Source of the DNA: Pseudomonadota bacterium
GTDB lineage: Bacteria; Pseudomonadota; Alphaproteobacteria; UBA11222
Direction: 5' to 3'
DNA: 64,000 nucleotides
NCBI GenBank assembly: GCA_049323435.1
Contig: JBMOMX010000035.1
Span: 10,357-74,356 of the forward strand
Positions 20,371 through 48,697 of this stretch are shown here, in pieces. The position numbers were made by a program, and so were the translations under genes. Under the pieces are notes generated by a model. That model was not told the DNA's origin and did not search any database. It saw only the letters and a list, made by a program, of their open reading frames with translations. Position 1 is the first letter of the stretch; every line of letters starts with the position of its first letter.

Positions 20371-20383
20371 GGGTGCAGGACAG

Positions 20384-31226: not shown

Positions 31227-31320
31227 TGACCCCCTCCCGGCCTCCCCCTTTCAGGGGGAGGAGGGCGATAGCCGCGCATACTCCCTCCCCCTGCAAGGGG
31301 GAGGGCTGGGGTGGGGGTCC
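31227..31320. repeat. Compound GC-rich palindromic intergenic element, copy 2
   Basis: Hairpins cctccccctttcagggggagg (31241-31261) and ccctccccctgcaagggggaggg (31283-31305) sit inside outer inverted arms gaccccctcccggcc / ggctggggtgggggtc. Confidence 0.8.
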
Positions 31321-32214: not shown

Positions 32215-32277
32215 CAATTTTTTTAGGGTTTTTTGATTCAGGGGCTTGCAAGGGGCGGAGCTTTCTGATCACATCTA

Positions 32278-32290
32278 TGATCATAGATTG
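32278..32290 (+). promoter_or_regulatory. Putative operator box TGATCATAGATTG upstream of amidohydrolase paralogue 1
   Basis: The same box occurs at 46196-46208 and 47506-47518, 24-26 nt before each paralogue's ATG. In this copy it lies inside a perfect 16-bp palindrome ATCTATGATCATAGAT, next to a second half-site TGATCACA at 32266-32273. Confidence 0.5.
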
Positions 32291-32316
32291 TGAAGCCGCG
32301 TCAACGGAGGAAACCC

Positions 32317-33486
32317 ATGAAGACAGGAATCGGACCAGGAGCCATCTCGGCGGACAGTCATATCGTCGAGCCGCCAAATTGTTATATCGACTATATTGAA
32401 CCGAAATACCGCGATACCGCCCCGCATGTGGCGGCCGGTGAAAATGGCCAGGACATCATCGTCATCAAGGATATGAAGAAAACCGTGCCCATGGGTTTTC
32501 TGGCTGGCGCCGGCATGACACCCAATGACCGCGCCAAATTCGCAGCGACCACCAAATTCGACGGCATCCGCCGCGGCGCCTGGGATCCCAAGGCGCGCGC
32601 CGCCGATCTGGACCAGGATGGTATTGCCGCTGAAATCATATATGCCTCCATTGGCATGATTTTATGCACCCACCCGGATGCGGAATATAAAAATGCCTGT
32701 ATGCAGGCCTATAACCGCTGGCTTCAGGAATTTTGCGGCGGCTTGCCGAACCGGCTGTTCGGGCTGGCGCAAACCGCCGTTCTGTCCGTGGACAGCGCGA
32801 TCGAGGATTTCCGCCGCGCCAAGGAAATGGGTTTTGTCGGCATGATGATGCCGGGCAATCCCATTCAGGGCGATTACGACAAGCCGGAATATGACGCTTT
32901 GTGGGAATGCGCGGTGGATCTCGACCTGCCGCTGGCGTTTCATATTCTTACCTCATCGGAAGGCAGCATCGAAAGCGTATTGGCGCCAAAGCGCGGACAT
33001 CCGCTGGGCGGATTCCTGAATATCATCCGCGCGGTGCAGGACATTGTATGCCTGTTCACCCTGACCGGCATTTTCGAGCGCTTCCCCAAACTGAAACTGG
33101 TTTGCGCGGAAGGCGATGCGGGCTGGATGCCGCATTACATGTACCGGATGGATCATGCGGCGACCTTTAACCTGCAAACCGGCATCATTCCGGGGCTGTC
33201 CAAACTGCCCAGCGAATATCTGCGCAGCAATGTCTGGATGACCTTCCAGGATGACGGGATCGCCTATCAGACCGCGCATCTGATGAATCACAAGCGCCTG
33301 ATCTGGGCCAATGATTTTCCGCATACGGATTCGACCTGGCCGCGCTCGCAGGCATTGATCAGCAAACAAGCCAAAGGACTGACCGCGGCGCAGCATCAGG
33401 ATATTTTCCGCAACAATGTGGCGGAACTGTTCAATCTGCCCGCGGGCAATGAATCCTGGCAGATGCACAAAATGGCGGCGGAATAG
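32317..33486 (+). CDS. Amidohydrolase family protein (PF04909 / Amidohydro_2 type), paralogue 1
   Basis: It has the ISADSHIVEPPNCY...HILT...ANDFPH metal-ligand pattern. GGAGGA precedes the ATG at 32317. It is about 70% identical to the ORFs at 46235 and 47543. Confidence 0.85.
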   Translation: MKTGIGPGAISADSHIVEPPNCYIDYIEPKYRDTAPHVAAGENGQDIIVIKDMKKTVPMGFLAGAGMTPNDRAKFAATTKFDGIRRGAWDPKARAADLDQDGIAAEIIYASIGMILCTHPDAEYKNACMQAYNRWLQEFCGGLPNRLFGLAQTAVLSVDSAIEDFRRAKEMGFVGMMMPGNPIQGDYDKPEYDALWECAVDLDLPLAFHILTSSEGSIESVLAPKRGHPLGGFLNIIRAVQDIVCLFTLTGIFERFPKLKLVCAEGDAGWMPHYMYRMDHAATFNLQTGIIPGLSKLPSEYLRSNVWMTFQDDGIAYQTAHLMNHKRLIWANDFPHTDSTWPRSQALISKQAKGLTAAQHQDIFRNNVAELFNLPAGNESWQMHKMAAE

Positions 33487-33571
33487 CGCCGCCCGCGCCG
33501 GAATGGCCTGATCGGATCAATCGGGGACAGTATAAATGCTGTCCCCGATAAGCCGTGCGCCCCGGCCAGTG

Positions 33572-34840
33572 TTAGGCCGGATCAAACATTATGTGCAGTT
33601 CCTTTAACCCGCGCAGAACGATGCTGGGTTCATGGTGCGGGTCGGGATGACCGGGCGCCAGGCGCAGATTTTTCATCCGTGTCAGGATGGTTCTGAACGC
33701 CAAATTCATTTCCTTGCGCGCCAGCATGGCCCCCAGGCAGTGATGCGTGCCCTGGCCAAACGCCACATGGCGGGCCGCGTTTTCACGGCGCACGTCGAAT
33801 TTTTCCGCCCCCTCGAATTGCGCCTCGTCACGATTGGCGCTGGCGAACATCAGCATCACCGCTGCGCCTTTGGGCATGAAGGTTCCGCCCAGCGTCGTGT
33901 CGCGGGTAGTAACCCGGAAAAGACCCTGCACCGGGCCGTCAAAGCGCAGCACTTCCTCGGTCAGGTTCTCCACCAGCGACATATCATCAAGCACCAGTTG
34001 CATTTGATCCGGGTGCTGAAGCAATAGCATCATTCCCTTGGACAGCGAGTTGGTAGTGGTTTCATTACCCGCCGCCAGCAACTGATTGAGCACGGACAAT
34101 AGTTCCGCTGTGCTCATCGGCTCGCCATTTTCCATACGCGCGCGCACCAGATCGGAAATAATGTCATCGGTGGGATTGGCGCGTTTTTCCTCGATCACCC
34201 TGGCGAAATATAGCTGAAACTCCAGCATCAGTTTCGAGGCTGCAATACGCTGTTCCTTGCTGGACACGCCGCTGATCTGCTGGGTCAGCGCATCCGACCA
34301 TTGCTTGAAAATTCCGATATCGCTGCGCGGCACACCAAGCTGATCGGCAATGATAATCATCGGCAGCGGCACGGTGAATTGCGACACGAACTCGCACTTG
34401 CCGTCTTTGATGAATTTGTCAATCAGCTCGTCGACCAGGTTCTGAATATAGGGTTCCAGCTGATTGACGCGCGCCTGGGAAAACACCTTGTTGATCGGGT
34501 TGCGATAGAATTTATGCTTGGGCGGATCCACCGTGATCAGTGTGGGCACAGAAGGATAGCCGCCATAATCTTCAAACCGGGTGCGCATTTCGGGCGGCGC
34601 CATTAAATCAATGACATCGCTGGAAAAAGTCGCGGTGTCCTTGAGCGCCTTCACAACATCCTCATAGCAGGTGACGGTAAAAAACCCGGCAACCGGGTCT
34701 TTATGAACCGGATCTTCTTCCCGCAGTTTTTTGTAGGTGTGATACGGGCATTCGATCACATCCATATCGACCAGCGTGGTCTGCTCCAGTGGCTTTTGCG
34801 CAGCAATGCGGCCCTTTTCTTCAAGTTCCGTCCGGATCAT
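33572..34840 (-). CDS. Cytochrome P450
   Basis: 422 aa with heme loop FGQGTHHCLGAMLA, an ExxR motif and the AGNETT I-helix. Confidence 0.9.
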   Translation of the reverse strand: MIRTELEEKGRIAAQKPLEQTTLVDMDVIECPYHTYKKLREEDPVHKDPVAGFFTVTCYEDVVKALKDTATFSSDVIDLMAPPEMRTRFEDYGGYPSVPTLITVDPPKHKFYRNPINKVFSQARVNQLEPYIQNLVDELIDKFIKDGKCEFVSQFTVPLPMIIIADQLGVPRSDIGIFKQWSDALTQQISGVSSKEQRIAASKLMLEFQLYFARVIEEKRANPTDDIISDLVRARMENGEPMSTAELLSVLNQLLAAGNETTTNSLSKGMMLLLQHPDQMQLVLDDMSLVENLTEEVLRFDGPVQGLFRVTTRDTTLGGTFMPKGAAVMLMFASANRDEAQFEGAEKFDVRRENAARHVAFGQGTHHCLGAMLARKEMNLAFRTILTRMKNLRLAPGHPDPHHEPSIVLRGLKELHIMFDPA

Positions 34841-35121
34841 GGCAAATTCCTCAGTTGGTTGCGGTCTGCAAATGACAGGCCTATCAGGCCCTCATCTACA
34901 ATATTATCAGTAATATGGTTTATTTTTGGTCAAGAGGCAAATTGCTTGTAAGAGATTTACAAAAAAATGCCGTTGCGTCCCTTGCCTTCTGGCTGCCACG
35001 GCGGCAAGACAGGGGGTGAATGACAGGCGCGATAATTCAGGGCACGCCCTGGAATAACAGGCATCCCGGTCCGTTACATACCCAGATCAACTGGCCGTGT
35101 TTTCTCCGGCCAGCCTGATTG

Positions 35122-35745
35122 TTAGTCCGGTTTTTTTGCCTTTAGCGGCAGCAGCCGGAACAGGCTTTCCTGATCAGGCAGGCCAGTGACATTAATTCCA
35201 TTCTTCTTTTGGAATTCGCTCAGGGCCGCATGCATGGCCTTACTGTAATTGCCATCAATTGATCCCTTGTAAAACCCCTGATCCGACAGGCTCTGTTGCA
35301 CCCTTTGCAATGTTTCACGATAAATGGGAACGCCCTTTTCCTTATTGCCAGCCAGTAATTTGTCACTACGGGCGATAATGCGCTGCGGGTGAAGCGCCTG
35401 GATCATATTATTTACAGCAATTTCAAATCGGTCCTCGGGATAAGATGCGCAGTAACGCTCCAGCAGCGCCAGCAGCAGATCGGTTGTCTGCCAGGGCGTC
35501 AGATCGAAAGTATCCGGGCTATTCTTGTTTGCGGCGGACAAATATCCATCCACCCAGCCGGCGAACAGATCTGCGGCCTTGGCGTTTCCCGCCTTGCGGG
35601 AATCGGTAAAGGCCTTGCATGGCGCACCGCCGCCGCCATCAATGGCATAGGCCCCATTACTATCGGCGGCTTTTGCGCGGTCCACCGGCAATGCAGGGCT
35701 CCATGCCAGGCCAAACACAAGAAGCGCCAATATCCTATGCGCCCG
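35122..35745 (-). CDS. Secreted protein with a C-terminal peptidoglycan-binding (PG_binding_1-like) domain
   Basis: Signal peptide MRAHRILALLVFGLAWSPALP. The C-terminal motif is LSDQGFYKGSIDGNYSKAMHAALSEFQKKNGINVTGL. Confidence 0.62.
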   Translation of the reverse strand, partial: RAHRILALLVFGLAWSPALPVDRAKAADSNGAYAIDGGGGAPCKAFTDSRKAGNAKAADLFAGWVDGYLSAANKNSPDTFDLTPWQTTDLLLALLERYCASYPEDRFEIAVNNMIQALHPQRIIARSDKLLAGNKEKGVPIYRETLQRVQQSLSDQGFYKGSIDGNYSKAMHAALSEFQKKNGINVTGLPDQESLFRLLPLKAKKPD

Positions 35746-35837
35746 CATGGCGAATATTCCTATTTCTGATTTGAATAATAAAAACCACCGGCGCATCATT
35801 ATGGCGCGCCGGCGGTTGCTAACGTAAGTGGTGCGCT

Positions 35838-37316
35838 TTAGCCGGCGCGAACCAGCTGCCCGCGTCCCGTCCTCAGACCAAGGATCCCCGCCAGTCCCGT
35901 GCCCAGAAGCAGCAGCATGCCGGGCTCAGGCACAGCGGCGCCATCATCATCCACAAGGATGGCCGTCATCGTCAGGGACAGGGCGCCGCCAGTGAAGTCG
36001 AGGAAAGTTGGGAACGCCGTGGCGAAGCCCGCATCCGCAACGTCAAGTAGTGGCAATATCCCCATCAGATCAAATGTGGTGACATCATCATCGGGGTCGA
36101 AGGAGTAGGATTCACCCGGTAGAATGGTGGCCACGACAATCCCATCAACAATGATGTCGAAGGGCCCGGTAAAGCCGGTCAAGGGCGCCATCACTTCGAG
36201 GAACTCGGCCCCGGGACCGGTCAGCGCATAGGTGAAGCCTTCCGCAAATGGCGGGTCATACCACAGACGGGGTTGTGGCGCGGGGAACTCAAACTGCCCG
36301 GGTGCGGGAACGAATGGCAGTACAGGATTGTCTTCCGTCTCGCCCGGGGCAACACCACCGACGCCGCCAAAGGCAAAGATAAAGGTCGCGGGCGTGCCGT
36401 CAGGGTTGCCTTCGACAGGATCGCCCACGGCAGCAGATGTAAACCCATCGCCGCCGCCGCCGCCAGGGTTGCTTTGCCCCAATGAATACAGATTGACACC
36501 AAGCCCGGCCAGCGCGGCAAGGGCGCTGGCCTCGCTTTCGCGCGAGCCGTAGAAGATGTTGAAGGTGCGGCTTTCCCCGGAGGCAAGATCACCAAAGGCA
36601 AAATCAAACAGAGAGCCATGGTCGTCCGGCCCCAGGTCGATAAAGTCGACGTTTTCCGACGAGGACCCAAAGTCACCTGTCGTGCTCGGACCCGTGAGCG
36701 GGTCGCCACTGGCGAAGCCATCATTGCTGGCATACAACACATTGCCGCCATTGGCCACCAGATTGTCCTCCACGCCCTGATGGGTGACAAATTCATTGAA
36801 AGCAGTGGGCGGCACATCCCAATCCATTACCCGCCGGTAGATGACATTATTCGCTGTCAGATCGCCAGTATTCCGGATCGTGACATTGACCTGGAAAATA
36901 TCGGCCTGCAGCGAGGGGCCAAACAGATGCGTGACCTCGATCGGGGCGCCGGATAGCCTTACCAGGGAGCTGGCGGTGTTGGCGGTTGCACCGAATGTGC
37001 CGCCGGTCAGGCCGCCAAAACCCGCAGCCTGATTAGCGAAACCTGAGGTGGTAATGCTGTCATAGGTGGTCGCAACACCCCAGCCTTCGCAGAAACAACC
37101 CGGAGAAATGGCATCGCCAATCGGGTTGCGGTAAACACCGTAGGTCATGAACCCGCCCGGACCGTTATCGGAAAAGTTCAGCTCGGCTGTATCGTTCACC
37201 CCTAGCGAAGTCGCGCCATAGGTGATGACCGCGCCAGCATAGGCCGGGCCATTTGCTAGAAATAATGCCATCGGCGCTGTCGCGGCGGTGGCCAATAATG
37301 CTCGTCTTAAGCTCAT
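35838..37316 (-). CDS. PEP-CTERM sorting-domain protein (an exosortase substrate), Gly-rich
   Basis: AGGAGA lies before the ATG at 37316. Signal peptide MSLRRALLATAATAPMALFLANGPAYA. The C-terminus VPEPGMLLLLGTGLAGILGLRTGRGQ is a PEP motif, a TM helix and an Arg cluster. Confidence 0.75.
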   Translation of the reverse strand: MSLRRALLATAATAPMALFLANGPAYAGAVITYGATSLGVNDTAELNFSDNGPGGFMTYGVYRNPIGDAISPGCFCEGWGVATTYDSITTSGFANQAAGFGGLTGGTFGATANTASSLVRLSGAPIEVTHLFGPSLQADIFQVNVTIRNTGDLTANNVIYRRVMDWDVPPTAFNEFVTHQGVEDNLVANGGNVLYASNDGFASGDPLTGPSTTGDFGSSSENVDFIDLGPDDHGSLFDFAFGDLASGESRTFNIFYGSRESEASALAALAGLGVNLYSLGQSNPGGGGGDGFTSAAVGDPVEGNPDGTPATFIFAFGGVGGVAPGETEDNPVLPFVPAPGQFEFPAPQPRLWYDPPFAEGFTYALTGPGAEFLEVMAPLTGFTGPFDIIVDGIVVATILPGESYSFDPDDDVTTFDLMGILPLLDVADAGFATAFPTFLDFTGGALSLTMTAILVDDDGAAVPEPGMLLLLGTGLAGILGLRTGRGQLVRAG

Positions 37317-37477
37317 GATATTTCTCCTATTAATAGTTAAGGACGTCCCAAAATGCGGAAGCCAAAGTTTTGATCTGCTTACTTCACCCAAATGCTTGCG
37401 GGTATATTCAAATACTAAGCAATGCCCATGCTAATTATGGGTTTATTAATGGTCAATAATTTGTCTATTCAAAATTT

Positions 37478-37909
37478 GTGACGGCCATCACAAAGCGGGT
37501 GGATTTTTCCCTGCGTGAGACCGCTCTTGCCTTATGGCGCAACAGACAGCAAGATTACCCCGTGAGCGACACCATACCCATACAGATGGCCCGCGTGCAG
37601 CGGGCCCCCGAAAAGGTCTTTTTCGACCGGCAGGAACTGCTGGTAATTCTGCATCTTTATGGCCGCATGGTGCAGGCGGGCGAATGGCGCGATTATGCGA
37701 TTGACGGGTTAAGGGATCGGGCGATTTTCTCGGCCTTCCGGCGCGCAAGTGAAATGCCGGCCTATTGCATCGTCAAACAGCCCGCGCTGGCCGGGCGTCA
37801 GGGCCAGTACGCCATTACCGGCAGCGGCGGCCAAATTCTGAAGCGCGGCCGTGAATTGCCCCAGGTGCTGCGAGTGCTGGAACGCAAACTGTTGAAGCTG
37901 GTGGAATAA
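37478..37909 (+). CDS. Conserved alphaproteobacterial hypothetical protein, possibly DUF2794-like
   Basis: The core LLVILHLYGRMVQAGEWRDYAIDGL resembles DUF2794 as I remember it. The real start may be the Met at 37586. Confidence 0.5.
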   Translation: MTAITKRVDFSLRETALALWRNRQQDYPVSDTIPIQMARVQRAPEKVFFDRQELLVILHLYGRMVQAGEWRDYAIDGLRDRAIFSAFRRASEMPAYCIVKQPALAGRQGQYAITGSGGQILKRGRELPQVLRVLERKLLKLVE

Positions 37910-37948
37910 AAAACCCCGCAGCTTAAGCAAGCTGCGGGGCTTGATTGT
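37910..37948. terminator. Bidirectional rho-independent terminator
   Basis: aaaaaa CCCCGCAGCTT aagc AAGCTGCGGGG cttgattgt lies between two convergent genes. An A-run sits on one side and T-rich sequence on the other. Confidence 0.7.
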
Positions 37949-37961
37949 CTCAGGCCGCAAC

Positions 37962-38681
37962 CTATTCGCGGTTGCCGCCAAACAGGCGCAGCATCATCAG
38001 GAACAGGTTGAGGAAATCCAGATACAGCGTCAGCGCGCCCATGATCGACTTTTTGCCGGCGATCTCATGGCCATCGTCTTCAAGGTAGATTTCCTTGATT
38101 TTCTGCGTGTCATAGGCGGTCAGGCCGGTGAACACCAGCACGCCGATCACCGAAATGGCGAAGTCCAGCGCCGAAGAAGCCAGGAAAATATTCACCACCG
38201 ATGCGATGATAATACCGATCAGCCCCATAAACAGGAACGAGCCAAAGCCGGTCAAATCCCGCTTGGTGGTATAGCCATACAGGCTGACCGCGCCGAACAT
38301 GCCCGCCGTGATAAAGAATACGCGGGTAATGCTGACCCCGGAATAGACATAGAAAATGCCCGACAGCGACAGGCCAACCAGCCCGGCATAGACCCAGAAC
38401 CAGGTTTGCGCGGAACTGAAGCTCATCGCATGAATGCGGGCGCTGAGATAGAGGACAACGCCCAGCGGCGCCAGCATCACCACCCAGATCAGCGGCGATC
38501 CAGCGATGGCGGAATAGATATCGGTGCGATAACCAAGATAAGCGATGATGCCGGTCAGCGCCAAACCCGACGCCATATAATTATAGACCCGCAGCATATA
38601 TTCGCGCAGGCCCTGATCGATGACCTGCGCACGCGCGCCAGTGCCGCCGAGGGCCGTCATATTCCGATCAAAATCAGCCAT
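37962..38681 (-). CDS. Bax inhibitor-1 / YccA family membrane protein
   Basis: 239 aa with seven transmembrane helices and a conserved BI-1 N-terminus (...REYMLRVYNYMASGLALTG). Confidence 0.85.
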   Translation of the reverse strand: MADFDRNMTALGGTGARAQVIDQGLREYMLRVYNYMASGLALTGIIAYLGYRTDIYSAIAGSPLIWVVMLAPLGVVLYLSARIHAMSFSSAQTWFWVYAGLVGLSLSGIFYVYSGVSITRVFFITAGMFGAVSLYGYTTKRDLTGFGSFLFMGLIGIIIASVVNIFLASSALDFAISVIGVLVFTGLTAYDTQKIKEIYLEDDGHEIAGKKSIMGALTLYLDFLNLFLMMLRLFGGNRE

Positions 38682-38878
38682 GTGAGTCCAGTTCTCCCTG
38701 TAAGAATGCTTGCGCTATATATCGGTCATATATGGGCAAAGTTCAAGCCATAGCCGTTAAACCGCCGCTTGCAGCAATAAAAGTGTCACTGTAGCTGTTG
38801 ATTAGTTGCTTTTTTACTATTGATATATTACATATTAACCCGCACGCACCATCCGCCAAAGATAGATATGAGGGTTAA

Positions 38879-40129
38879 ATGTCAATTCTGGAAGAAAAGG
38901 GCCGCGCCGCCGCCGCCAAGCCGGTTGATCAGATCACACTGGTGGATATGGATGTGATTGGCTGCCCCTATCACGCCTATCAGAAGCTGCGCCAAGAGGC
39001 GCCGGTATTCAAGGATCCGGCGGGTTTTTTCGTCGTGACCCGCTATGACGATATTTATATGGCGCTGAAGGACACGGCGACATTCTCCAGCGATTCGCTG
39101 GTGCCGCGCGAGGAATATGTCCGCCCCGTGCAGTATGGCGGCCTGCCGATGACGGACACCATGATCACCTCCGATCCGCCCCGGCACCGTTTTCTGCGCG
39201 GCCCGCTGAACAAGCTGTTTTCGCTTTCGCGCGTCAATCAGATGGAAGCCTATGTGCAGCAGATTGTGGATGAGCTGATCGACAGCTTCATCGACAAGGG
39301 CGAATGCGATTTCGTCAAAGACTATACCATACCGCTGCCGATGATTGTCATCGCCGATCAGCTGGGCGTGACACGCGATGACCTGCCGAGCTTTTCACGC
39401 TGGTCGGACGCTTTTGCTTCGCTGGTCAGCGGTTTTGCAACCGAGGATGACAAGATTTTTGCGGCGAAACAGATTGTCGAGATGCAGCAATATTTCCTCA
39501 AGGTCATTCCGGTAAAACGCCAGAACCCGACCAATGACGTGATCTCCGATCTGGTACAGGCCAAAATGGAAGATGGCGAACCGATGAAGGATGTGGATAT
39601 TCTTTCCAGCATCCATCTGCTGCTGACGGCGGGGAATGAGACCACGACCAATTCCATGTCGCTGGCCATGCGGGCGCTGATCGAAAATCCGGCGCAGATG
39701 CAGGCGCTGCGCGATGATCCGTCGCTGGTCACCAATTTTGTCGAGGAATCGCTGCGTTTTGACGGGCCGGTACAGGGGCTGATGCGCCGCGCCACCTGCG
39801 ATACCCAAATCGCCGGGGTAAAAATTCCCAAGGATTCGCTAGTGAATCTGCGCTTCGGCAGCGGCAATCGCGACGCAGCCAAATATACCAAACCCGATGA
39901 GCTCAATGTCTGCCGTAAGGACAGCACCGTGCATCTGGCTTTCGGCCAGGGTACGCATACCTGCCTGGGCGCCAGCCTGGCGCGCAAGGAAATTGATCTG
40001 ACCTTCCGCACCATTCTGCGCCGGATGAAAAATATCCGCTTCCGCGATCCGGGGGTGGAAATGGTCTATGAACGCAATATAGCGCTGCGTACCATGAAAA
40101 ATCTGCATATCAAGTTCGACAAGGCGTAA
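38879..40129 (+). CDS. Cytochrome P450, a paralogue of the ORF at 33572-34840
   Basis: 416 aa with heme loop FGQGTHTCLGASLA. The N-terminus (EEKGRAAAAKPVDQITLVDMDVIGCPYH) aligns with the other P450. Confidence 0.9.
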   Translation: MSILEEKGRAAAAKPVDQITLVDMDVIGCPYHAYQKLRQEAPVFKDPAGFFVVTRYDDIYMALKDTATFSSDSLVPREEYVRPVQYGGLPMTDTMITSDPPRHRFLRGPLNKLFSLSRVNQMEAYVQQIVDELIDSFIDKGECDFVKDYTIPLPMIVIADQLGVTRDDLPSFSRWSDAFASLVSGFATEDDKIFAAKQIVEMQQYFLKVIPVKRQNPTNDVISDLVQAKMEDGEPMKDVDILSSIHLLLTAGNETTTNSMSLAMRALIENPAQMQALRDDPSLVTNFVEESLRFDGPVQGLMRRATCDTQIAGVKIPKDSLVNLRFGSGNRDAAKYTKPDELNVCRKDSTVHLAFGQGTHTCLGASLARKEIDLTFRTILRRMKNIRFRDPGVEMVYERNIALRTMKNLHIKFDKA

Positions 40130-40134
40130 TCGGT

Positions 40135-40548
40135 TCACATGCCCAGCAGGGTGACGCCGGCAGCGTCACCCGCCGCGCGCAATTCCTTATCGAGCGACGC
40201 CAGCGGCAGGCGCAGCCGCAGCGCCAGCTCCAGATAGGCGGCATCGTATAGGGTGAGACGGTGCTGTTCGGCGAGGCTTAGGGTCGTTGACCAGGCGAAA
40301 TTATCCGTATCAGGATCAGTTGTAATGTTGAGCAGTGCAAGCCCCCTGAGCGCGGTGTCGCGGGTTGCAGCATCTATGCGCCCACGCCGGACAGACATCT
40401 GCAACCCGTTGGCAATCTCCAGTCGCCAGATGGCTGGCACGAAAGCCTGTTCGTCAATGAGACGGTCCAGGATTTTCTGAACCGGCAAAGTTCTCTCCTC
40501 AGTAAAAATCCAGGCAAGAGTAACCGATGCGTCCACGACAAGCGTCAC
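40135..40548 (-). CDS. vapC: Type II toxin VapC (PIN domain)
   Basis: 137 aa with PIN acidic residues (VVDASV..., ...YDAAYLELA). It overlaps the upstream antitoxin by 4 nt. Confidence 0.82.
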   Translation of the reverse strand: MTLVVDASVTLAWIFTEERTLPVQKILDRLIDEQAFVPAIWRLEIANGLQMSVRRGRIDAATRDTALRGLALLNITTDPDTDNFAWSTTLSLAEQHRLTLYDAAYLELALRLRLPLASLDKELRAAGDAAGVTLLGM

Positions 40549-40820
40549 TTACGCCCCTCGTCGCGATAGGCTTTCCACTCTTCCCAGTTAAAGCCACCCT
40601 CTAGCTTGACGGCATTCCTGCGCAATCCTTCTACTGCGGCGCGCGCGCGGACACGGTCGGCGGCCTGCCGCGCTTTTTCCCGGTCGAACACCGACTCCGC
40701 CGACACCAGCCGTGCCACCGGCTTGCCGCGCCTTGTGATCAGGACTTCCTCGCCCGCCTCAACCCAATCCAGCAATGTGCCAAGCTTGTTCTTGGCCTCA
40801 AAGGCCCCAACTTCCCGCAT
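40545..40820 (-). CDS. Phd/YefM-family antitoxin
   Basis: 91 aa. MREVGAFEAKNKLGTLLDWVEAGEEVLITRRGKPVARLV is the Phd/YefM signature. Confidence 0.78.
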   Translation of the reverse strand: MREVGAFEAKNKLGTLLDWVEAGEEVLITRRGKPVARLVSAESVFDREKARQAADRVRARAAVEGLRRNAVKLEGGFNWEEWKAYRDEGRK

Positions 40821-40886
40821 GAACCCATCTCCTCTAATAAGCTAGCTTACAGTCTAGCTTATTTAATCCAATGGAAAAAGTCAAAC

Positions 40887-43412
40887 TCAACCGGTGCGCA
40901 GTACACCCGCCGCTTTTTGTCCCAGCACCCGCCAGGTCATGGCCAGCCCTAGAAAGATGGTCACAGACACCGTGGCCAGCAGGGTAATCACCAGCGTGCC
41001 GGGCAAAAACTCAAAATCCGCATGCATCAGAAAGGTGACGGTCATATAGGCAGCGGCCGTGCCGATCAGGCCGGCAAGGCCTGCGGCGCACAGACCCAGC
41101 AGGGCATATTCCGCGCCATAGGCCAGCACCACCCGGGCCCGTGACGCACCCATGACTTTAAGCAGCACCGCGTCATAGACGCGCTGCCCATGCCCCGCCG
41201 CCAGCGCGCCTGCCAGAACCAGCATGCCGGTCACCAGCGTAACAGCGCCGGCCGCGCGCACGGCCATTGCCAGATTGTTCAGCAATCCGCTTACCGTTTC
41301 CAGGGTTTCGCGCACCCGCACCACGGACACGCCGGGGAAACGATCCGTCACTGCAATATGCAAGGGCGTTTCAGCCTTTTCAGTAGCGCGCGCGGTCGCC
41401 AGATAACTGTGCGGGGCGCTGGAAATCAGACCCGGCGAAAATATGAGCGCAAAATTCACCCCCATGGTGGACCAGTCGATGCTGCGCAGATTGGCGATAC
41501 GCGCCTCAATATCACGGCCCAGCACGTTGACCGTCATCGTGTCGCCAATCGCCAACCCCATATCCGCGGCCAGCCGCGCATCGAGCGATAAAAGCGGCGG
41601 CCCGTCATATCCAGGCGGCCACCATTCGCCTGTTGCAATGACGCTGTCTTCGGGCGGCATTGCTGCAAAGCTCAGATTGCGGTCCCCGCGCAGCGCCCAG
41701 CGCGCTTCGGGCGGAACGGAATCGACGGTGGCGGGCCTTTCCTTGATGCGCACAATCCGGCCGCGAAGGGTTGGCATGCTCTCCACATCCCAAACGCCGC
41801 CCACCCCATAGGCCAGTTTGCGAAACGCCTCAATATCCGTAGACTGAATATCCAGAAAGAAAAATGCGGGCGCGTCATTTGCCGTCCGCTGCGTCACCTG
41901 GCGGTTGATATTTCCCTCCACCATTGCAATCGTCACCAGCAGCGAAAGCCCAAGCCCCAGCGACAATAACACTGCCGGCGCGGGACTGCCCGGGCGGTGC
42001 AGATTGGCCAGCGCCAGACGCAGTTCCGGCCGCGGCGGCGCGGGCATGCGGCGCGCCAGCGCCATGACCGCAGCCCCAAGCACGCGCAACAAGGCAAAGC
42101 TCGCGCCAATGCCGGTGACGAACCAGAATGCAAATCGCGCATCGCCGGCAATCAGAAAGGCCAACCCCGCCAGCAGGCCAAGCAGCAGCGCAATCCCTGC
42201 AACATAGATGGGCCGCGGCCAGCGGCGGGCGGGCGCCACAATATCGCGGAACAGCCCGGCCGCCGAAATTTCCCGCGCCCGCGCCAGCGGCCAGATGGCG
42301 AACAGCACGGCCGTGATCATCCCGAAGGTGCTGGCATAGAGCAGCGGCAGCGGATAGACCGCAAAATGCGCAGGCACAGGCAGCATATCCGCCAATATCG
42401 TCCCCAGTAAAAACGGGATTGCCGCACCGAAGCCCAACCCGATGGCGATCCCGAGACAGGCGAGCAGAATAATCTGGATCAGATAGATGCGAAAAATCAG
42501 GCCGCCTTCCGCGCCAAGGCATTTCAGCGTGGCGATAGCCGCGCGCTTGCGCTGTAAATATCCGTGCACGGCATTGCCCGCGCCAACACCGCCCACCACC
42601 AGCGCCGTCAATCCGGTCAGGGTTAAAAACATCGCCATCTGATCCAGAAACTGCCGGGTGCTGGGCGCGCTATTGTCACGGTCACGCACCCGCCAGGCGG
42701 CGTCCGGAAATTGCGCGCTCAACCGCTCCAGCCAGATTTTAAGCTCCGTTTCCGGATGCAGCTTGATGCGGTAATGGCGCACTTGCAGGCTGCCGGGCTG
42801 CACAAGCCGTGTAACGTCCAGGGCGCCGGATGCGATCATGACCCGGGGCCCAAGCGCCAATCCGCCGGATGCGCGGTCCGGCTCACGCACAATAATGCCG
42901 CGCACCTGAAAATCATGCGCGCCAATACGCAGCAATGTGCCGGTGCGGGCATTCAGCCGTTCCGCCAGCGGGGCTTCGATGACCGCGCCCCAGACTCCAT
43001 CCCGCTGTGACAGCGCGCCATGCAGTTCCACATTCTCACGCAGGACCATCGCGCCAAACAGCGGATAGGCGGCGTCCACCGCCTTCAACTCGATCAGGGT
43101 GCGCACATTATTGGCGTGGCTTTTCACCATGGCGCGCATATCGCGGCTTAATGACACCGCGCCGCTGGCCTGCATATGCGCAAGTTCTGCGGCATTGGCG
43201 TCACGATAATTCAGTTCCAGCGCCACATCGCCGCCCAGAATGGCCTGCCCCTCGGCTTGCATACCCCCCATTATCGCCGCACCCAGCGACCCCGCCCCCG
43301 CAATCGCCGCCACCCCGACAGCCAGACAGGCCAGAAATATATAAAATCCATGCAGCCCCCCGCGCAGCTCACGCAGCGCAAAACGCAGGGATAGAGGTAA
43401 GGCCAGACTCAA
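40887..43412 (-). CDS. ybbP: ABC transporter permease with two FtsX domains, YbbP/MacB-like
   Basis: About 840 aa with two four-TM FtsX repeats and large periplasmic loops. The ORF extends to 43493, but a TTG at 43412 overlaps the ybbA stop as TTGA and aligns with the E. coli YbbP N-terminus. Confidence 0.78.
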   Translation of the reverse strand: MSLALPLSLRFALRELRGGLHGFYIFLACLAVGVAAIAGAGSLGAAIMGGMQAEGQAILGGDVALELNYRDANAAELAHMQASGAVSLSRDMRAMVKSHANNVRTLIELKAVDAAYPLFGAMVLRENVELHGALSQRDGVWGAVIEAPLAERLNARTGTLLRIGAHDFQVRGIIVREPDRASGGLALGPRVMIASGALDVTRLVQPGSLQVRHYRIKLHPETELKIWLERLSAQFPDAAWRVRDRDNSAPSTRQFLDQMAMFLTLTGLTALVVGGVGAGNAVHGYLQRKRAAIATLKCLGAEGGLIFRIYLIQIILLACLGIAIGLGFGAAIPFLLGTILADMLPVPAHFAVYPLPLLYASTFGMITAVLFAIWPLARAREISAAGLFRDIVAPARRWPRPIYVAGIALLLGLLAGLAFLIAGDARFAFWFVTGIGASFALLRVLGAAVMALARRMPAPPRPELRLALANLHRPGSPAPAVLLSLGLGLSLLVTIAMVEGNINRQVTQRTANDAPAFFFLDIQSTDIEAFRKLAYGVGGVWDVESMPTLRGRIVRIKERPATVDSVPPEARWALRGDRNLSFAAMPPEDSVIATGEWWPPGYDGPPLLSLDARLAADMGLAIGDTMTVNVLGRDIEARIANLRSIDWSTMGVNFALIFSPGLISSAPHSYLATARATEKAETPLHIAVTDRFPGVSVVRVRETLETVSGLLNNLAMAVRAAGAVTLVTGMLVLAGALAAGHGQRVYDAVLLKVMGASRARVVLAYGAEYALLGLCAAGLAGLIGTAAAYMTVTFLMHADFEFLPGTLVITLLATVSVTIFLGLAMTWRVLGQKAAGVLRTG

Positions 43413-44128
43413 TTTTGCGCTGCCGCCAGCGGCGCGCCGCCATTTGTCACACGTGCGATTTTCCCGTCCGCCAGATGCACCACACGGCCGCAACGCGCAG
43501 CCAGGGCCGCGTCATGCGTGATCAGCAGCAATGTGGCGCCGGTATCGGCCTGCAGGGCAAACATCAATTGAATGATCTGCTCGCCGGTAGCAGTGTCCAG
43601 ATTTCCGGTGGGTTCATCCGCCAGCAGTATGCGCGGCCGGGCGGCAACGGCGCGGGCCAGCGCCACCCGTTGCTGTTCACCCCCCGACAATTGCCCCGGA
43701 TAGTGGCCGGTGCGATGGGAAAGGCCGACAGACGCCAGCGCCTCCTGCGCGCGCGCAAATGCATCGCGCCGTCCCGCCAGTTCCAGCGGCACCGCGGCAT
43801 TTTCCAGCGCCGTCATCGTGGCGATCAGATGAAATGACTGAAACACAATTCCGGTATTATCGCGCCGGAACGCCGCCAGCTGATCCTCGCTCATGGCGCC
43901 CAGATCATGCCCGGCGACACGCACCACGCCGGAGCTGGCCCGCTCCAGCCCGGCCATCACCATCAGCATTGTGGATTTGCCCGAACCGCTGGGGCCGATC
44001 AGACCTACCGCTTCGCCTTCGCTTACGCTAAGATCAATGCCATGCAGAATATCAACTCTGCCTGCGCCGCTGTTCAGTGATAAATGCACATTGTCGAAGT
44101 GAATGACCGGATTACTCAAACATACCAC
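43409..44128 (-). CDS. ybbA: ABC transporter ATP-binding protein, YbbA-like
   Basis: Walker [10 protein letters not shown], the [14 protein letters not shown] signature and Walker B LLADEPT. Confidence 0.85.
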
Positions 44129-44147
44129 CTATGACCGTGTGAAGCAC

Positions 44148-44798
44148 ATGTCTGAACATAGCGTGATAAAGGCCATGATCAATAGCGCATTTCAACTTCT
44201 CATATTTGCAATGCTGCTTGCCGTCTCACCCTTGCAGGCAAAAGAGACGCCGGTGCTGGTTGTGCTGGGCGACAGCCTGACTGCGGGCGCGGGTTTGGCC
44301 GCCGGGGATGCGTTTCCGGCCAGGCTGCAAGCGCATCTGGCGTCGCTGGGAATAATGGTGAAAGTGGAAAATGCCGGCGTCTCCGGCGACACCAGCGCGG
44401 ATGGCCTGGCGCGGCTGGACTGGTCGATCGGCGCAGATGCGGACGCCGTGATTGTTGAACTGGGCGCCAATGACGCGCTGCGCGGGATCGCGCCGGAACA
44501 GGCTTATGCCAATCTTGAAAAAATCATACAGCGTTTGCAGCAGCGCAAACTGCCGGTCATGCTGGCGGGCATGAAGGCGATGCGCAATCTGGGGGAAGAC
44601 TATATCGCCGCCTTTGACGCGATTTACCCCCGGCTGGCTGAAAAATATCAGGTGCCGCTATACCCATTTTTTCTGGAAGGCGTTGCGGCGGACCCCAAAC
44701 TCAATCAGCCCGATATGCTGCACCCGAATGCGGCGGGCGTTGACGTGATCGTCAGGAATATTGCGCCGCAGGTGATAGAATTTCTCAAGGGCATATAA
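44148..44798 (+). CDS. tesA: SGNH/GDSL hydrolase, TesA-like (arylesterase / thioesterase I / lysophospholipase L1)
   Basis: Signal peptide, then VVLGDSLTAGAG (GDSL block), and DGLHP near the C-terminus. It is divergent from ybbA, as in E. coli. Possible starts are 44103, 44148 and 44175. Confidence 0.78.
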   Translation: MSEHSVIKAMINSAFQLLIFAMLLAVSPLQAKETPVLVVLGDSLTAGAGLAAGDAFPARLQAHLASLGIMVKVENAGVSGDTSADGLARLDWSIGADADAVIVELGANDALRGIAPEQAYANLEKIIQRLQQRKLPVMLAGMKAMRNLGEDYIAAFDAIYPRLAEKYQVPLYPFFLEGVAADPKLNQPDMLHPNAAGVDVIVRNIAPQVIEFLKGI

Positions 44799-44808
44799 GG
44801 TTTAATCC

Positions 44809-45342
44809 GTGTTTAGACTATTTTCAGCCCTCACGCTGCCGGCTGATATTGTGCGGCGCCTGGAATGGATGGGCGGCGGCATTCCCGGCGCGCGCTGGGT
44901 TGCTGCGGAAAATATGCATGTGACCCTGCGTTTTATCGGCGATGTCGATATGCACGCCGCCGGACTGGCCCATACGGCGCTTCAGGAAGTTTCCTTCTCG
45001 CCCTTTGATCTGCAATTGCGCGGGGTTGCGGTATTTGGCGAACGCAAGCCGCGTCTGTTATATGTGGGCGTTGAACCGGCTGAAGAATTGCTGGCGCTCT
45101 ATGCGCGGACCAATGCGGCGCTGGCCCGCGCCGGACTGCCGCCGCCGGCTGGGCGGCGATATGTGCCCCATGTCACGCTGGCGCGGCTGAACAATCCGCC
45201 GCGCGACCGCATCGGGGCCTTTATTGCGGCGCATAATATTCTGGCGCTGCCGGCAATCAGGGTGGAAAATTTCGTGCTGATGTCCAGCCACCGGTCCGAA
45301 AATGGCGCCAGCTATCAGATCGAGGCGCGCTATCCCGTCTAA
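44809..45342 (+). CDS. thpR: RNA 2',3'-cyclic phosphodiesterase (2H family, ThpR/LigT)
   Basis: Two HxTx motifs (HVTLRF and HVTLAR) in a 177-aa protein. Confidence 0.85.
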   Translation: MFRLFSALTLPADIVRRLEWMGGGIPGARWVAAENMHVTLRFIGDVDMHAAGLAHTALQEVSFSPFDLQLRGVAVFGERKPRLLYVGVEPAEELLALYARTNAALARAGLPPPAGRRYVPHVTLARLNNPPRDRIGAFIAAHNILALPAIRVENFVLMSSHRSENGASYQIEARYPV

Positions 45343-45773
45343 TTCAGCATATTGGGCTGCGCCAGGGCGGCATCTTCGAGCATTTCCATCGCCTCATCCG
45401 ACAGGCCGAAATGATGGCCGATCTCATGCACCAGTACATGGGTGACGATGTCCGCCAGACTGTCATCGCCCTCGCACCAGCAGTCCAGGATCGGGCGGCG
45501 GTACAGAAAAATAATGTCCGGGCCGGATGGCTGATCAAGAATATTTTTGCTGGTCAGATCAACCCCCGAATATAATCCCATTATCTCGAACGGGTTTTCG
45601 ATACCCAGTTCGCGGCAGGTGTCTTCATCGGGAAAATCCACCACCTGAATAATGATTTCAGTAATATTTTCGAGAAATTGCTGCGGCAGGCGCGCCAGTG
45701 CGGCACTGCCGATTTCGGCAATATCGTCAAGGCTCGGCGCTAACATGTGGGCGGACCAGTTGCTATATGTCAT
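45339..45773 (-). CDS. Small zinc metallopeptidase-like protein (zincin HExxH)
   Basis: 144 aa with HEIGHHFG near the C-terminus. Confidence 0.65.
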
Positions 45774-45863
45774 GTACGCAGTCTAGCCGATCTTGCCGGT
45801 CATGCAAAGCGGGCGCATACTGCGCGGCCTCAGATGGAAGGGAAATTTCGAAAGGAAGCAGCA

Positions 45864-46160
45864 ATGATTGAAAAACTAAGCGGCGAAGCCCGGCATGCGG
45901 CCCTGGCGGAACTTGCGGGCTGGCAGGAAGTGCCGGGACGTGACGCCATTGCAAAACAATTCAAATTCGCCAATTTCAATGCCGCCTTTGGCTGGATGAC
46001 GCGGGTTGCACTGCTTGCCGAAAAAATGGACCACCATCCAGAATGGTCCAATATATACAATACAATAGATGTTACCCTGGCGACCCATGAGGCAAATGGG
46101 GTGACCCTGCGCGATCATAAAATGGCCCTGGCCATGAATGCCTATGCGGCGGGCAAATAA
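45864..46160 (+). CDS. Pterin-4a-carbinolamine dehydratase
   Basis: [10 protein letters not shown]...[22 protein letters not shown] with the conserved DHHPEW motif. AAGGAAG precedes the ATG at 45864. Confidence 0.85.
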
Positions 46161-46195
46161 TGCTTCTGCCGCAGCGCGCCTTGCGCCTATAATTA

Positions 46196-46208
46196 TGATC
46201 ACAGATTG
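46196..46208 (+). promoter_or_regulatory. Putative operator box TGATCACAGATTG upstream of amidohydrolase paralogue 2
   Basis: 26 nt before the ATG at 46235. The same box precedes the other two paralogues. Confidence 0.5.
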
Positions 46209-46234
46209 AAAAGCCAGCATAGGGAGCGCCACCA

Positions 46235-47389
46235 ATGTTTTTCAAAGGCATCATCTCCGCAGACAGCCATATTGTTGAGCCGCCAAACTGCTATGTCGAT
46301 TTCATCGAACCCAAATATCGCGAAGACGCGCCGCGCGTGGTGCGCCAGCCTAATGGCAAGGACATTTATGTCATCAAGGATCTGAAGCAAAGCGTGCCTT
46401 TGGGGCTGCTGGACAGCGCCGGCATGAAGCCGAAAGAGCGCAAACATCACGCCGACACCACCAAGTTCGAGGAAACCCGTCCCGGCGGCTATGACGCCAA
46501 GGCACGCCTGCTGGACATGGACCTTGAAGGCACGGCGGCGGAAATCATCTATGCCTCGGTCGGCATGGTGCTTTGCACGCATCCGGACCCGCACTATAAA
46601 GACGCGGCGATGCAGGCCTATAACCGCTGGCTGCAAACTTTTTGCGCAGAAGCGCCGAACCGTCTGTTTGGCCTGGCGCAGACTGCAATTCTGTCCGTTG
46701 ACAGCGCCATCGCGGATTTCCGCCGCGCCAAGGAAATGGGCATGGTCGGGATGATGATGCCCGGCAATCCGGTTGAGGGCGAATATGACCGCCCGGAATA
46801 TGACGCGCTGTGGGAATGCGCCACCGATCTGGGCCTGCCGATCTGTTTTCATATTCTGACCGCCAAGGAAGGCGATTTATCTTCGGTGTTCGACGGCGGG
46901 CGCGGGCACAGACTGAATGGCGGCATGAAAATCATTCGCGCCATACAGGATATTGCCGGAATGATGGTGCTGGGCGGCGTGTTTGAACGCCACCCGAAAC
47001 TGAAACTGGTGACCGCCGAGGGCGATGCCGGCTGGATGCCGCATTATATGCGCCGCATGGACCACACCGCGTTCCGCGAGGCCGAGGATGGCATCATCAA
47101 GGGTCTGAGCAAACTGCCCAGCGAATATATCAAATCCAATGTCTTCATGACGTTCCAGGATGATTACATGGCCTGGCGGAATATCGAGCATATGAATTAC
47201 AAACAGCTTTTATGGGCCAATGATTATCCGCATTCGGATTCGACCTGGCCCAATTCCCAGGCCCTGCTGGCCAGACACGCCGCCGGCGTCGCCCCTGACA
47301 GGCTGCGCGCCATTCTGCGCGAAAATACCGCCAGCCTGTTCAACCTGCCGCTCGAAAAAATTCCCACCATGCAGATGGCGGCGGAATAG
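46235..47389 (+). CDS. Amidohydrolase family protein (PF04909 type), paralogue 2
   Basis: MFFKGIISADSHIVEPPNCYVDFIEPKYRED.... AGGGAG RBS. Confidence 0.85.
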   Translation: MFFKGIISADSHIVEPPNCYVDFIEPKYREDAPRVVRQPNGKDIYVIKDLKQSVPLGLLDSAGMKPKERKHHADTTKFEETRPGGYDAKARLLDMDLEGTAAEIIYASVGMVLCTHPDPHYKDAAMQAYNRWLQTFCAEAPNRLFGLAQTAILSVDSAIADFRRAKEMGMVGMMMPGNPVEGEYDRPEYDALWECATDLGLPICFHILTAKEGDLSSVFDGGRGHRLNGGMKIIRAIQDIAGMMVLGGVFERHPKLKLVTAEGDAGWMPHYMRRMDHTAFREAEDGIIKGLSKLPSEYIKSNVFMTFQDDYMAWRNIEHMNYKQLLWANDYPHSDSTWPNSQALLARHAAGVAPDRLRAILRENTASLFNLPLEKIPTMQMAAE

Positions 47390-47505
47390 GGCTAAACGCT
47401 CCGGCAGGGGGTCCGGCCAGTGGCTGGGCCCCTTTCCTTATAACGGCCGTGATCAGCGCCACACAAAAATCCCTTCTTTTCCCGCTATGTATGTGTCTAT
47501 AATTC

Positions 47506-47518
47506 TGATCACAGATTC
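47506..47518 (+). promoter_or_regulatory. Putative operator box TGATCACAGATTC upstream of amidohydrolase paralogue 3
   Basis: 24 nt before the ATG at 47543. Confidence 0.5.
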
Positions 47519-47542
47519 AAAACCGGAACAATGGAGCCTATC

Positions 47543-48697
47543 ATGTTCTTCAAGGGAGTCATCTCCGCCGACAGCCATATTGTCGAGCCGCCAAATTGTT
47601 ATGTGGACTTTATTGACCCGAAATTCCGGGCCGATGCGCCGCGCGTGGAACGTCTGCCCAATGGCACCGACACCTATGTCATCCGGGATATGAAACGCAC
47701 CATTCCGATGGGCTTTCTTGACGGCGCCGGCATGAAGGTGGCCGAGCGCAAGAAACATGCCGAAAATATCAGGTTTGAAGATATCCGCGTTGGCGGTTAT
47801 GACGCCAAGGCGCGCCTGGTGGATATGGACCGCGAAGGCACCGCAGCGGAAATCATCTATGCCTCGGTGGGCATGGTGCTGTGCACGCATCCTGATCCGG
47901 TTTACAAGGATGCGTCGTTCAAAGCCTATAATCGCTGGCTGCAAAGTTTCTGCGAAGGCGCGCCCAACCGTTTGTTCGGCCTTGCGCAAACCGCCATCCT
48001 GTCGGTGGACAGCGCGATCGAGGATTTCCGCCGCGCCAAGGAAATGGGCTTTGTCGGCATTATGATGCCGGGCAATCCCGTGAATGGCGAATATGACCAG
48101 CCGCAATATGATGCATTGTGGGAATGCGCGGTCGATCTGGATCTGCCCATTTGCTTTCACATTCTGACCGCCAAGGGCGATGGCGTTGACGAAGCGCTTC
48201 GCGGCAAGCGCGGCCATCCGCTGAACGGCTTTATGGGCATTATCCGCGCTGTGCAGGATGTCATGGGCATGATGGTGCTGGGCGGCGTGTTCGAACGCCA
48301 TCCCAAGCTGAAGCTGGTCACCGCCGAGGGTGATGCGGGCTGGATGCCGCATTATATGTATCGCATGGACCATGCGGCGCACACGGCGGCGGATGACGGC
48401 ATTATCAAAGGGCTGAGCAAACTGCCCAGCGAATATATTAAATCCAATGTCTATATGACGTTCCAGGATGATTATACCGCATTCCGCAATGCCGATCAGA
48501 GCAACTATAAGCAGTTGCTATGGGCGAATGATTATCCGCATACGGATTCAACCTGGCCGAATTCGCAGGCGCTGCTGGCCAAGCATGCCAGCAATCTTGC
48601 GCCGGATCTGGTGCGCGCCATCGTCAGGGAAAACACCGCCAATCTGTTCAATCTGCCGCTTGATAAAATCCCCGCCATGCAGATGGCGGCTGAATAG
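47543..48697 (+). CDS. Amidohydrolase family protein (PF04909 type), paralogue 3
   Basis: MFFKGVISADSHIVEPPNCYVDFIDPKFRAD.... GGAG lies 8 nt upstream. Another in-frame ATG exists at 47531. Confidence 0.85.
   Translation: MFFKGVISADSHIVEPPNCYVDFIDPKFRADAPRVERLPNGTDTYVIRDMKRTIPMGFLDGAGMKVAERKKHAENIRFEDIRVGGYDAKARLVDMDREGTAAEIIYASVGMVLCTHPDPVYKDASFKAYNRWLQSFCEGAPNRLFGLAQTAILSVDSAIEDFRRAKEMGFVGIMMPGNPVNGEYDQPQYDALWECAVDLDLPICFHILTAKGDGVDEALRGKRGHPLNGFMGIIRAVQDVMGMMVLGGVFERHPKLKLVTAEGDAGWMPHYMYRMDHAAHTAADDGIIKGLSKLPSEYIKSNVYMTFQDDYTAFRNADQSNYKQLLWANDYPHTDSTWPNSQALLAKHASNLAPDLVRAIVRENTANLFNLPLDKIPAMQMAAE

Follow-up and report, generated by a model that had tools for sequence, protein, structure and literature searches.

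Introduction

The amidohydrolase-related dinuclear oxygenases (AROs), which use two redox-active metal ions for O2-dependent oxidations, make up the oxygenase branch of the PF04909 family. They are marked by a D-x-H near the N-terminus, located on the first beta strand and providing two ligands of metal site 1, and by a D-x-P-H-x-D/E towards the C-terminus (PMC13154177; PMC10811679), a signature that occurs in all characterised dinuclear oxygenases of the family and in no characterised hydrolase or decarboxylase (PMC13154177). These enzymes were recognised recently, and of an estimated ~17,000 sequences most are annotated as 'amidohydrolase' and a handful have a known substrate (PMC13154177). 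The founding ARO, PtmU3 (6OMP/6OMQ/6OMR), is a non-haem diiron monooxygenase of platensimycin/platencin biosynthesis, and DitZ (8UYR) is a diiron diterpenoid hydroxylase of Pseudomonas and Rhodococcus. The DitZ enzymes studied have been placed in the high-potential, diiron-dependent class (PMC13154177), which shows a hydrophilic gamma-1, a hydrophobic gamma-2 and a non-aromatic gamma-4 residue (Table 1 of PMC13154177) and is usually encoded without a neighbouring Rieske ferredoxin. The present work deals with a 64-kb stretch of DNA (contig JBMOMX010000035.1 of assembly GCA_049323435.1), hereafter the window, whose own positions are used throughout, and in particular with a 17-bp box that stands upstream of each of its three paralogous genes for PF04909 proteins and that probably serves as the operator of a repressor.

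A 17-bp box upstream of three paralogous genes

The three genes lie on the + strand where a preliminary description of this DNA had placed them, and all encode PF04909 proteins (E ~1e-22, above the gathering score): paralogue 1 at 32317..33486 (389 aa, E 9.8e-23), paralogue 2 at 46235..47389 (384 aa, E 3.1e-22) and paralogue 3 at 47543..48697 (384 aa, E 8.5e-23). Their ATG starts (32317, 46235 and 47543) are backed by Shine-Dalgarno-like GGAG(G) sequences and by the N-termini of homologues. Pairwise protein identities are 64.3% (copies 1 and 2), 64.8% (copies 1 and 3) and 78.4% (copies 2 and 3), for which the earlier figure of roughly 70% was a fair summary. NCBIfam holds no model specific to the three proteins, and a protein identical to copy 1 also occurs, with unchanged neighbours, on metagenome contigs.

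A 13-mer had been noticed ahead of each paralogue, and it is indeed there, its end lying 24-26 nt before the ATG. With at most one mismatch allowed, the window contains three copies of TGATCAYAGATTS and no more (32278, 46196 and 47506), always on the + strand, while shuffling predicts 0.26 occurrences and none of 100 shuffles reached three. The 13-mer was nevertheless drawn too narrowly, as the conserved element is 17 bp long and takes in 5 nt more on the left. The alignment of 34 distinct instances gives the near-palindrome AATT(A/C)TGATCA(C/T)AGATT, with a high information content from -5 to +11 (relative to the first T of TGATCA) and values near zero outside these limits. The window copies of this putative operator, all on the + strand, are box 1 (ATCTATGATCATAGATT, 32273..32289), box 2 (AATTATGATCACAGATT, 46191..46207) and box 3 (AATTCTGATCACAGATT, 47501..47517). 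When scored with a weight matrix trained solely on sites from other genomes, with the window sites excluded, they reach 26.4, 28.0 and 26.7 bits, respectively, and the next best independent site of the window reaches 12.6 bits.

As described before, copy 1 lies within a perfect 16-bp palindrome, ATCTATGATCATAGAT, at 32273-32288; perfect 16-bp palindromes are also found in two related loci, L016 and L021 (ATTTATGATCATAAAT). The second half-site reported next to box 1 is present as well, as TGATCACA at 32266..32273 (+), 12 bp upstream of the box 1 core, but of the copy-1 orthologues only L002 has it intact, as the window does. Its degenerate forms in other copy-1 orthologues (TGCTCATA in L001 and L003, TGTCCATA in L007 and TGTTCATG in L004) indicate that it is not part of the conserved element, and the orthologues carry a -10-like CATAAT at the place of this extra half-site. 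A GANTC methylation site (CcrM) was also considered as a component of the box and set aside, since some boxes contain GATTC and others GATTG, GATTA or GATTT.

The box proved to be highly specific in the DNA that was scanned, namely the window, 566 kb of related loci (L001-L085) and the metagenome matches listed, where the 13-mer is enriched upstream of these genes rather than common. A search for the 17-mer with up to three mismatches over the 566 kb returned 45 matches, 35 of them directly upstream of an ARO-type start and in the same orientation, nine representing reverse-strand readings of those palindromic sites, and a single unrelated one in a Binatia locus with a broken core. Among the matches listed from an exact scan of metagenomes, most are chance occurrences on AT-rich contigs, all 8 on contigs with a GC content of at least 0.56 precede ARO genes, and none marks a non-ARO target on contigs of the right composition. 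When the search criteria were relaxed, the window gave chance-level matches only; TGATCACAAAAT, for example, is found at 5674 and 14677, in both cases without the left arm and in one of the two inside a gene. A separate observation concerns two metagenome contigs, L112 (~759-775) and L154 (~971-987), where chance matches to the 17-mer fall at the start of unrelated amidohydrolase-like genes. The sequence involved, ATGATCATAGATT, codes for the N-terminus M-I-I-D-(S/F)-H, and the resemblance to the box is most likely a coincidence.

Promoter contexts and conservation in related genomes

A protein-guided scan with one genome per species yielded 79 loci, the best of which are copy-1 orthologues (92% identical) from uncultured alphaproteobacterial metagenome-assembled genomes (MAGs), with more distant homologues in MAGs of Pseudomonadales and Binatia. 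The box was found upstream of homologues in ~23 alphaproteobacterial loci and in three promoter contexts, whose upstream regions are unrelated apart from the box itself. In the first, TTGACA-N17/18-GATCATAGATT, the box covers the -10 region, with GATCAT 17-18 nt after a perfect TTGACA. The second, CCTTC(A/T)-N20-TATAAT-TA-TGATCACAGATT, is that of window copies 2 and 3, and the third, TTGCGC-N18-CATAAT-TA-TGATCATAGATTG, is that of the copy-1 orthologues. In these last two contexts the final 3 nt of TATAAT or CATAAT fall inside the box, and in the window boxes 2 and 3 share them with consensus TATAAT hexamers at 46188-46193 and 47498-47503, respectively.

Such a position raises the question of whether the box could itself belong to the core promoter, as a combined -10, discriminator and initial transcribed sequence that the RNA polymerase or an alternative sigma factor would recognise directly, without a repressor being involved. 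The exact 17-18 nt between TTGACA and GATCAT in one class, the overlap of the left arm with TATAAT or CATAAT in the others, and the uniform orientation of all sites relative to the gene would agree with this explanation. However, measured from the best -10 candidate, the box of the TATAAT classes is placed ~7 bp further downstream than that of the TTGACA-N17 class, and due to this difference in register it cannot be the same polymerase contact in both. Moreover, an element of 17 bp with dyad symmetry, forming perfect 16-bp palindromes in some copies, is much longer than a -10 element, and the housekeeping promoters of the same DNA do not contain it. We consider a pure core-promoter role quite improbable.

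The box might also act as RNA, in the form of a structured 5′-leader, a short upstream ORF or an element akin to a riboswitch. Its location 24-26 nt from the start codon in the window would be suitable for that, and copy 2 (ATGATCACAGATTGA) could code for a mini-ORF of four codons. In the homologues, however, the distance between box and ATG goes from 24 to ~65 nt across the promoter classes, the leaders fold no better than shuffled sequences (z = -1.2 and +0.5), and the three of them have no Rfam match at E ≤1. The mini-ORF is not conserved either, since copy 3 shows CTG and no in-frame stop nearby, and the box probably spans the transcription start, so that only part of it would be transcribed. 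The variable distance, together with the lack of a stable fold and of Rfam matches, points to an element that works at the DNA level, and a function as RNA is highly improbable.

In a neighbour-joining tree of 85 homologues, the box appears in four separate paralogue clades, all from a single uncultured lineage of Alphaproteobacteria, and it is absent both from the Pseudomonadales members within or beside the box-bearing clades and from the Binatia homologues. Genomes of this lineage can hold several such genes, with at least five paralogues in each of D_bin4 and CTOTU26806, and the arrangement of copy 1 some 13-14 kb ahead of copies 2 and 3 is repeated on contig JBBQCS010000005 (L007 and L052). 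These data bear on another explanation, that the box is a functionless leftover of gene duplication. For paralogues 2 and 3, which are in tandem, are 78% identical and also have CCTTC(A/T)-N20-TATAAT in common upstream, a passive origin would be conceivable. Nonetheless, copy 1 is only 64% identical in protein and has the box alone in common upstream, the box persists in four paralogue clades and in many MAGs, the same clades include Pseudomonadales members that do not have it, and the flanking information content is near zero. Because four clades keep the box while the Pseudomonadales and Binatia relatives lack it and the rest of the upstream region differs, the box is maintained by selection in one lineage rather than as a passive by-product of duplication, an alternative to which we assign a very low probability.

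Three further observations were made in the related genomes. First, a fifth ARO paralogue clade, which corresponds to the downstream partner of the TTGACA-class gene, carries a degenerate form of the box with indels, TTTTCCTTCA-N20-TTTATAGTGATGACAAGAGTTA (L009 ~1400-1470; L017 ~2980-3050; L019 ~4250-4317; L033 ~4240-4307), whereas L044, from the same clade, has a canonical box. Second, the Pseudomonadales MAGs L005, L006, L008, L010, L012, L015 and L024 encode ARO paralogues with 70-77% identity to their alphaproteobacterial counterparts, and in the tree these group within the same clades or next to them, which suggests a horizontal transfer of ARO genes without the operator. Third, a second conserved element, CCTTC(A/T) (TGCTTCT in copy 2), is located at 46163-46169 and 47471-47477, exactly 20 nt upstream of TATAAT, and is found upstream in L031, L035, L036, L038, L043 and L052 as well. 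As this spacing is too long for a normal -35, an activator might bind there, or the element might be an atypical -35.

Enzyme identity

The preliminary description had taken the three proteins as probable decarboxylases or hydrolases of aromatic or heterocycle catabolism, in a family that includes ACMSD, LigW and LigI, an assignment that the comparison with solved structures does not support. The closest of these is PtmU3 (6omp; E 3.5e-43 for copy 1 and 3.7e-48 for copy 2), followed by DitZ (8uyr; E 1.6e-25 for copy 1 and 2e-30 for copy 2), in both cases over nearly the full length (residues 11-376 of copy 1), whereas LigW, gamma-resorcylate decarboxylase and ACMSD match over partial regions with E values from 1e-10 to 1e-4 (7e-11 for the best decarboxylase match). 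Both ARO motifs are present. The N-terminal one reads D-S-H (residues 13-15 in copy 1, 10-12 in the other two) and corresponds in the alignment to SADSH of PtmU3 and IDDH of DitZ; the C-terminal one is D-(F/Y)-P-H-(T/S)-D in all three proteins (DFPHTD at 333 in copy 1, DYPHSD and DYPHTD at 330 in copies 2 and 3, respectively), preceded in each case by at least ~200 aa. In the alignment with PtmU3 and DitZ, D13, H15, H209, E265, D333, H336 and D338 are conserved. H209 (FHILT) aligns with IHIGT of PtmU3 and LHIGG of DitZ, and E265 (AEGDAGW) with AEAGCAW and SEGGVGW of the two enzymes; we infer that both columns hold metal ligands, namely the mid-barrel His and the carboxylate expected of AROs.

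All three window proteins are hence most likely AROs with a two-metal oxygenase centre, and probably high-potential enzymes of the diiron PtmU3/DitZ type. The gamma-1 residue, between the D and the H, is the sole gamma position mapped and is a Ser, hydrophilic as in PtmU3, which fits the diiron class; no Rieske ferredoxin is encoded near the window genes, as is typical of that class. An AlphaFold2 model built from a three-sequence alignment reached a pLDDT of 39, so that the ARO assignment is one made from sequence comparison. As for the reaction, the two nearest characterised enzymes, the neighbouring cytochrome P450 genes and the acyl-CoA-ligase-type gene upstream in some relatives would presumably point, by a loose analogy, to C-H hydroxylation of alicyclic, terpenoid-like or acyl-CoA substrates. 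The window enzymes would join this known superfamily, defined only recently, as new and uncharacterised members.

Genomic context and search for a regulator

The window corresponds to alphaproteobacterial core genome, with genes for CcrM, RNase HII, MutY, SMC, RpsA, MetK, FolD, CoaBC, Dut and PhaC, and a Pfam scan detected neither a ferredoxin nor a catabolic cluster in it. Copy 1 comes after a gene of the TauE family and faces a convergent cytochrome P450 gene (33572-34840, -), with a second P450 gene 5 kb further on (38879-40129, +), and copies 2 and 3 follow a gene for pterin-4a-carbinolamine dehydratase. The box-bearing genes of related MAGs are also scattered beside housekeeping genes, with YbjN, ProC, MscL, MazEF and an AMP-binding ligase among the families encoded by their immediate neighbours, and L020, L023 and, judging by position and size, probably L021 have an acyl-CoA-ligase-type gene upstream in the opposite orientation.

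The preliminary description had proposed to look for an IclR, GntR or LysR regulator in the vicinity, and neither one of these nor any other plausible regulator was found nearby in a Pfam scan of all substantial window ORFs. The only DNA-binding regulators that Pfam recognises in the window are an IscR-like Rrf2 protein and a Phd antitoxin, neither of them with a box nearby, and no transcription-factor family appears among the 25 most frequent of the 57 neighbour families of the related loci. The Rrf2 gene (20351-20836) scores below the IscR equivalog cutoff, follows coaBC-dut beside a gene for an MFS/Atg22-like transporter, and lies 12 kb upstream of copy 1, unlinked to it.

The presence of this gene, the sole one for a transcription factor in the 64 kb, leads to another possible reading of the box, as a target of global, metal-responsive control by Fur, Mur, Irr, RirA or another Rrf2 protein, which would tie oxygenases dependent on Fe or Mn to metal supply instead of a pathway ligand. 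In favour of this, the enzymes concerned are predicted to hold a dinuclear Fe (or Mn) centre, their genes are scattered between housekeeping genes, where neither a pathway cluster nor a local regulator accompanies them, and the reverse strand of the box, TGATCATAATTATAG, is by eye loosely similar to a 7-1-7 Fur box. The 19-bp Fur consensus GATAATGATAATCATTATC, however, is matched at only 10-11 of 19 positions, not above shuffled sequences (shuffle fraction 0.11-0.50; p = 0.11-0.5), and was discarded as a candidate. To our knowledge, the box is also unlike the ICE of Irr, the TGA-N9-TCA of RirA and the motifs of IscR and NsrR. In addition, no metal-uptake or Fe-S gene with a box was seen in the window or in the 566 kb of related loci, and the Rrf2 gene itself has no box upstream. 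Control by metal through this site is, in our opinion, improbable.

Several other features of the region deserve mention. Neither P450 promoter has a box, and AT-rich stretches with ATATTAC occur ~60-70 nt upstream of both P450 starts (near 34905-34930 on the reverse strand and at 38815-38838), which may be a separate operator. A PIN (VapC)/Phd-YefM toxin-antitoxin pair occupies 40135-40820 (-), and in L023 an inserted MazEF pair (2233-2875, -) separates the acyl-CoA-ligase-type gene from the ARO promoter; judging from these pairs, small mobile modules punctuate such regions. Between the Dus-like and TauE genes, at 31228-31319, there is a highly stable G/C-rich hairpin of ~90 nt (-75.6 kcal/mol, z = -6.5) with arms of the CCCCCTCCC/GGGAGGGGG type and weak matches to miRNA-precursor models on both strands. 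It could represent a palindromic element of the REP kind or a terminator that acts in both directions. Finally, the ORFs at 58415-58642 and 59488-59997 show an atypical composition (GC1 0.37 and GC3 0.49, compared with ~0.7 elsewhere) and no Pfam match, and could either be of foreign origin or not be real genes.

Discussion

The 17-bp box combines dyad symmetry, overlap with core-promoter hexamers, recurrence at several promoters and conservation across genomes, the features by which an operator is recognised, and its position on, or directly next to, the predicted -10 and start region makes a repressor operator the favoured interpretation. With moderate confidence, we regard the box as the site at which a dimeric protein would bind at the -10/start of every paralogue promoter. 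Each of the three genes would be its own transcription unit, with its own promoter and its own operator. For paralogues 2 and 3 this separation is indicated by a terminator-like GC-rich hairpin followed by UUUCCUU between them (47406..47434, +; 13-bp stem, -29 kcal/mol, z = -2.84). The operator would overlap or abut the -10 hexamer and the likely transcription start, where a dimeric repressor of the helix-turn-helix type, encoded elsewhere in the genome, would most likely bind and block the RNA polymerase, until a ligand frees the repressor and all paralogues are switched on together. That a protein binds the box, that it represses rather than activates, and that a ligand is involved is what we infer from the position and symmetry of the site. 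The idea of a dedicated operator through which one regulator controls a small paralogue family, already put forward in the preliminary description, thus retains its main part, as the box is conserved in four clades, is nearly exclusive to AROs and sits on the predicted -10/start. A plausible regulator was not found nearby in the Pfam scans.

Several points weigh against the repressor interpretation. Most sites have arms offset by 1 nt, and every site has the same orientation relative to its gene, which is less expected of a purely symmetric operator. No regulator gene was found beside the box-bearing genes in the window or in the 23 related loci, and the box scans covered the 64-kb window, the 566 kb of related loci and the listed metagenome matches, so that further regulon members are possible. 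The promoter hexamers are predictions, and a generic promoter scan missed the TATAAT promoters on account of their poor -35; window copy 1, moreover, has CACATC in place of the orthologous -10 CATAAT. On the enzyme side, metal, substrate and activity are read across from relatives that are only ~30-35% identical.

A bolder proposal would be that, in this uncultured alphaproteobacterial lineage, one regulator controls a regulon consisting solely of at least five dispersed, single-gene ARO paralogues, without a local redox partner or cluster. We hold this version to be unlikely, though worth stating for its consequences. If true, it would point to a physiological role of AROs not yet described, for example as a bank of substrate-diversified C-H hydroxylases that respond jointly to a single class of compounds in the environment (alicyclic, terpenoid or lipid) or, alternatively, as isoenzymes switched by metal or oxygen status, and the operator would be a direct handle for fishing out the regulator and its inducer.

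A generic 'amidohydrolase' label, like the guess of the preliminary description, would misdirect the functional assignment of these proteins, towards hydrolysis or decarboxylation instead of O2-dependent C-H oxidation. A lineage-specific operator common to several ARO paralogues would also be a tool for DNA-affinity capture and reporter screens, leading from the operator to the regulator and its inducing ligand, and from there to the physiological substrates of orphan AROs in abundant uncultured environmental alphaproteobacteria.

The comparison with described systems helps to place both the enzymes and the box. With LigW, ACMSD, gamma-resorcylate decarboxylase and LigI, the window proteins have in common the Pfam family and the TIM-barrel amidohydrolase-2 fold, but those mononuclear enzymes lack D-x-H and D-x-P-H-x-D/E (PMC13154177), both of which are present here. 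The likeness to PtmU3 goes much further, with an identical SADSH motif including the Ser, the mid-protein His and Glu, the D-x-P-H-x-(D/E) loop and a neighbourhood with no Rieske ferredoxin. About one third of the residues are common to both, and the final residue of the C-terminal motif is an Asp in the window proteins, as in DitZ and other AROs, whereas in PtmU3 it is a metal-binding Glu; the window genes, furthermore, are dispersed single-gene units in a core-genome context and not part of a biosynthetic cluster. DitZ, the second-best solved relative, carries D-Y-P-H-S-D-S-T-W-P-R-S, almost the same as ND(F/Y)PH(T/S)DSTWP(R/N)S of the window proteins, but it is longer (423 aa) and has Asp instead of Ser between the D and the H. 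Diterpenoid (dit) clusters contain P450 genes, which recall those near copy 1, and DitZ itself belongs to a catabolic cluster with a local regulator, whereas the window has neither cluster nor local regulator.

As for the box, a full-text literature search with the palindrome core TATGATCATA and 'operator' gave nothing relevant, so that the motif is, as far as checked, undescribed in the literature searched but ordinary in kind. Classical repressor operators (for example those in TetR-, GntR-, MarR- or Xre-type regulons of catabolic oxygenase genes) differ from it in that here no regulator is adjacent to any target and the 1-nt offset between the arms is the more frequent arrangement. The likenesses are a dyad site of 16-18 bp, its overlap with the core promoter and the use of the same site at several unlinked target promoters, and a palindromic repressor site repeated in this way is an ordinary principle of regulation, to which the box of these AROs would conform.

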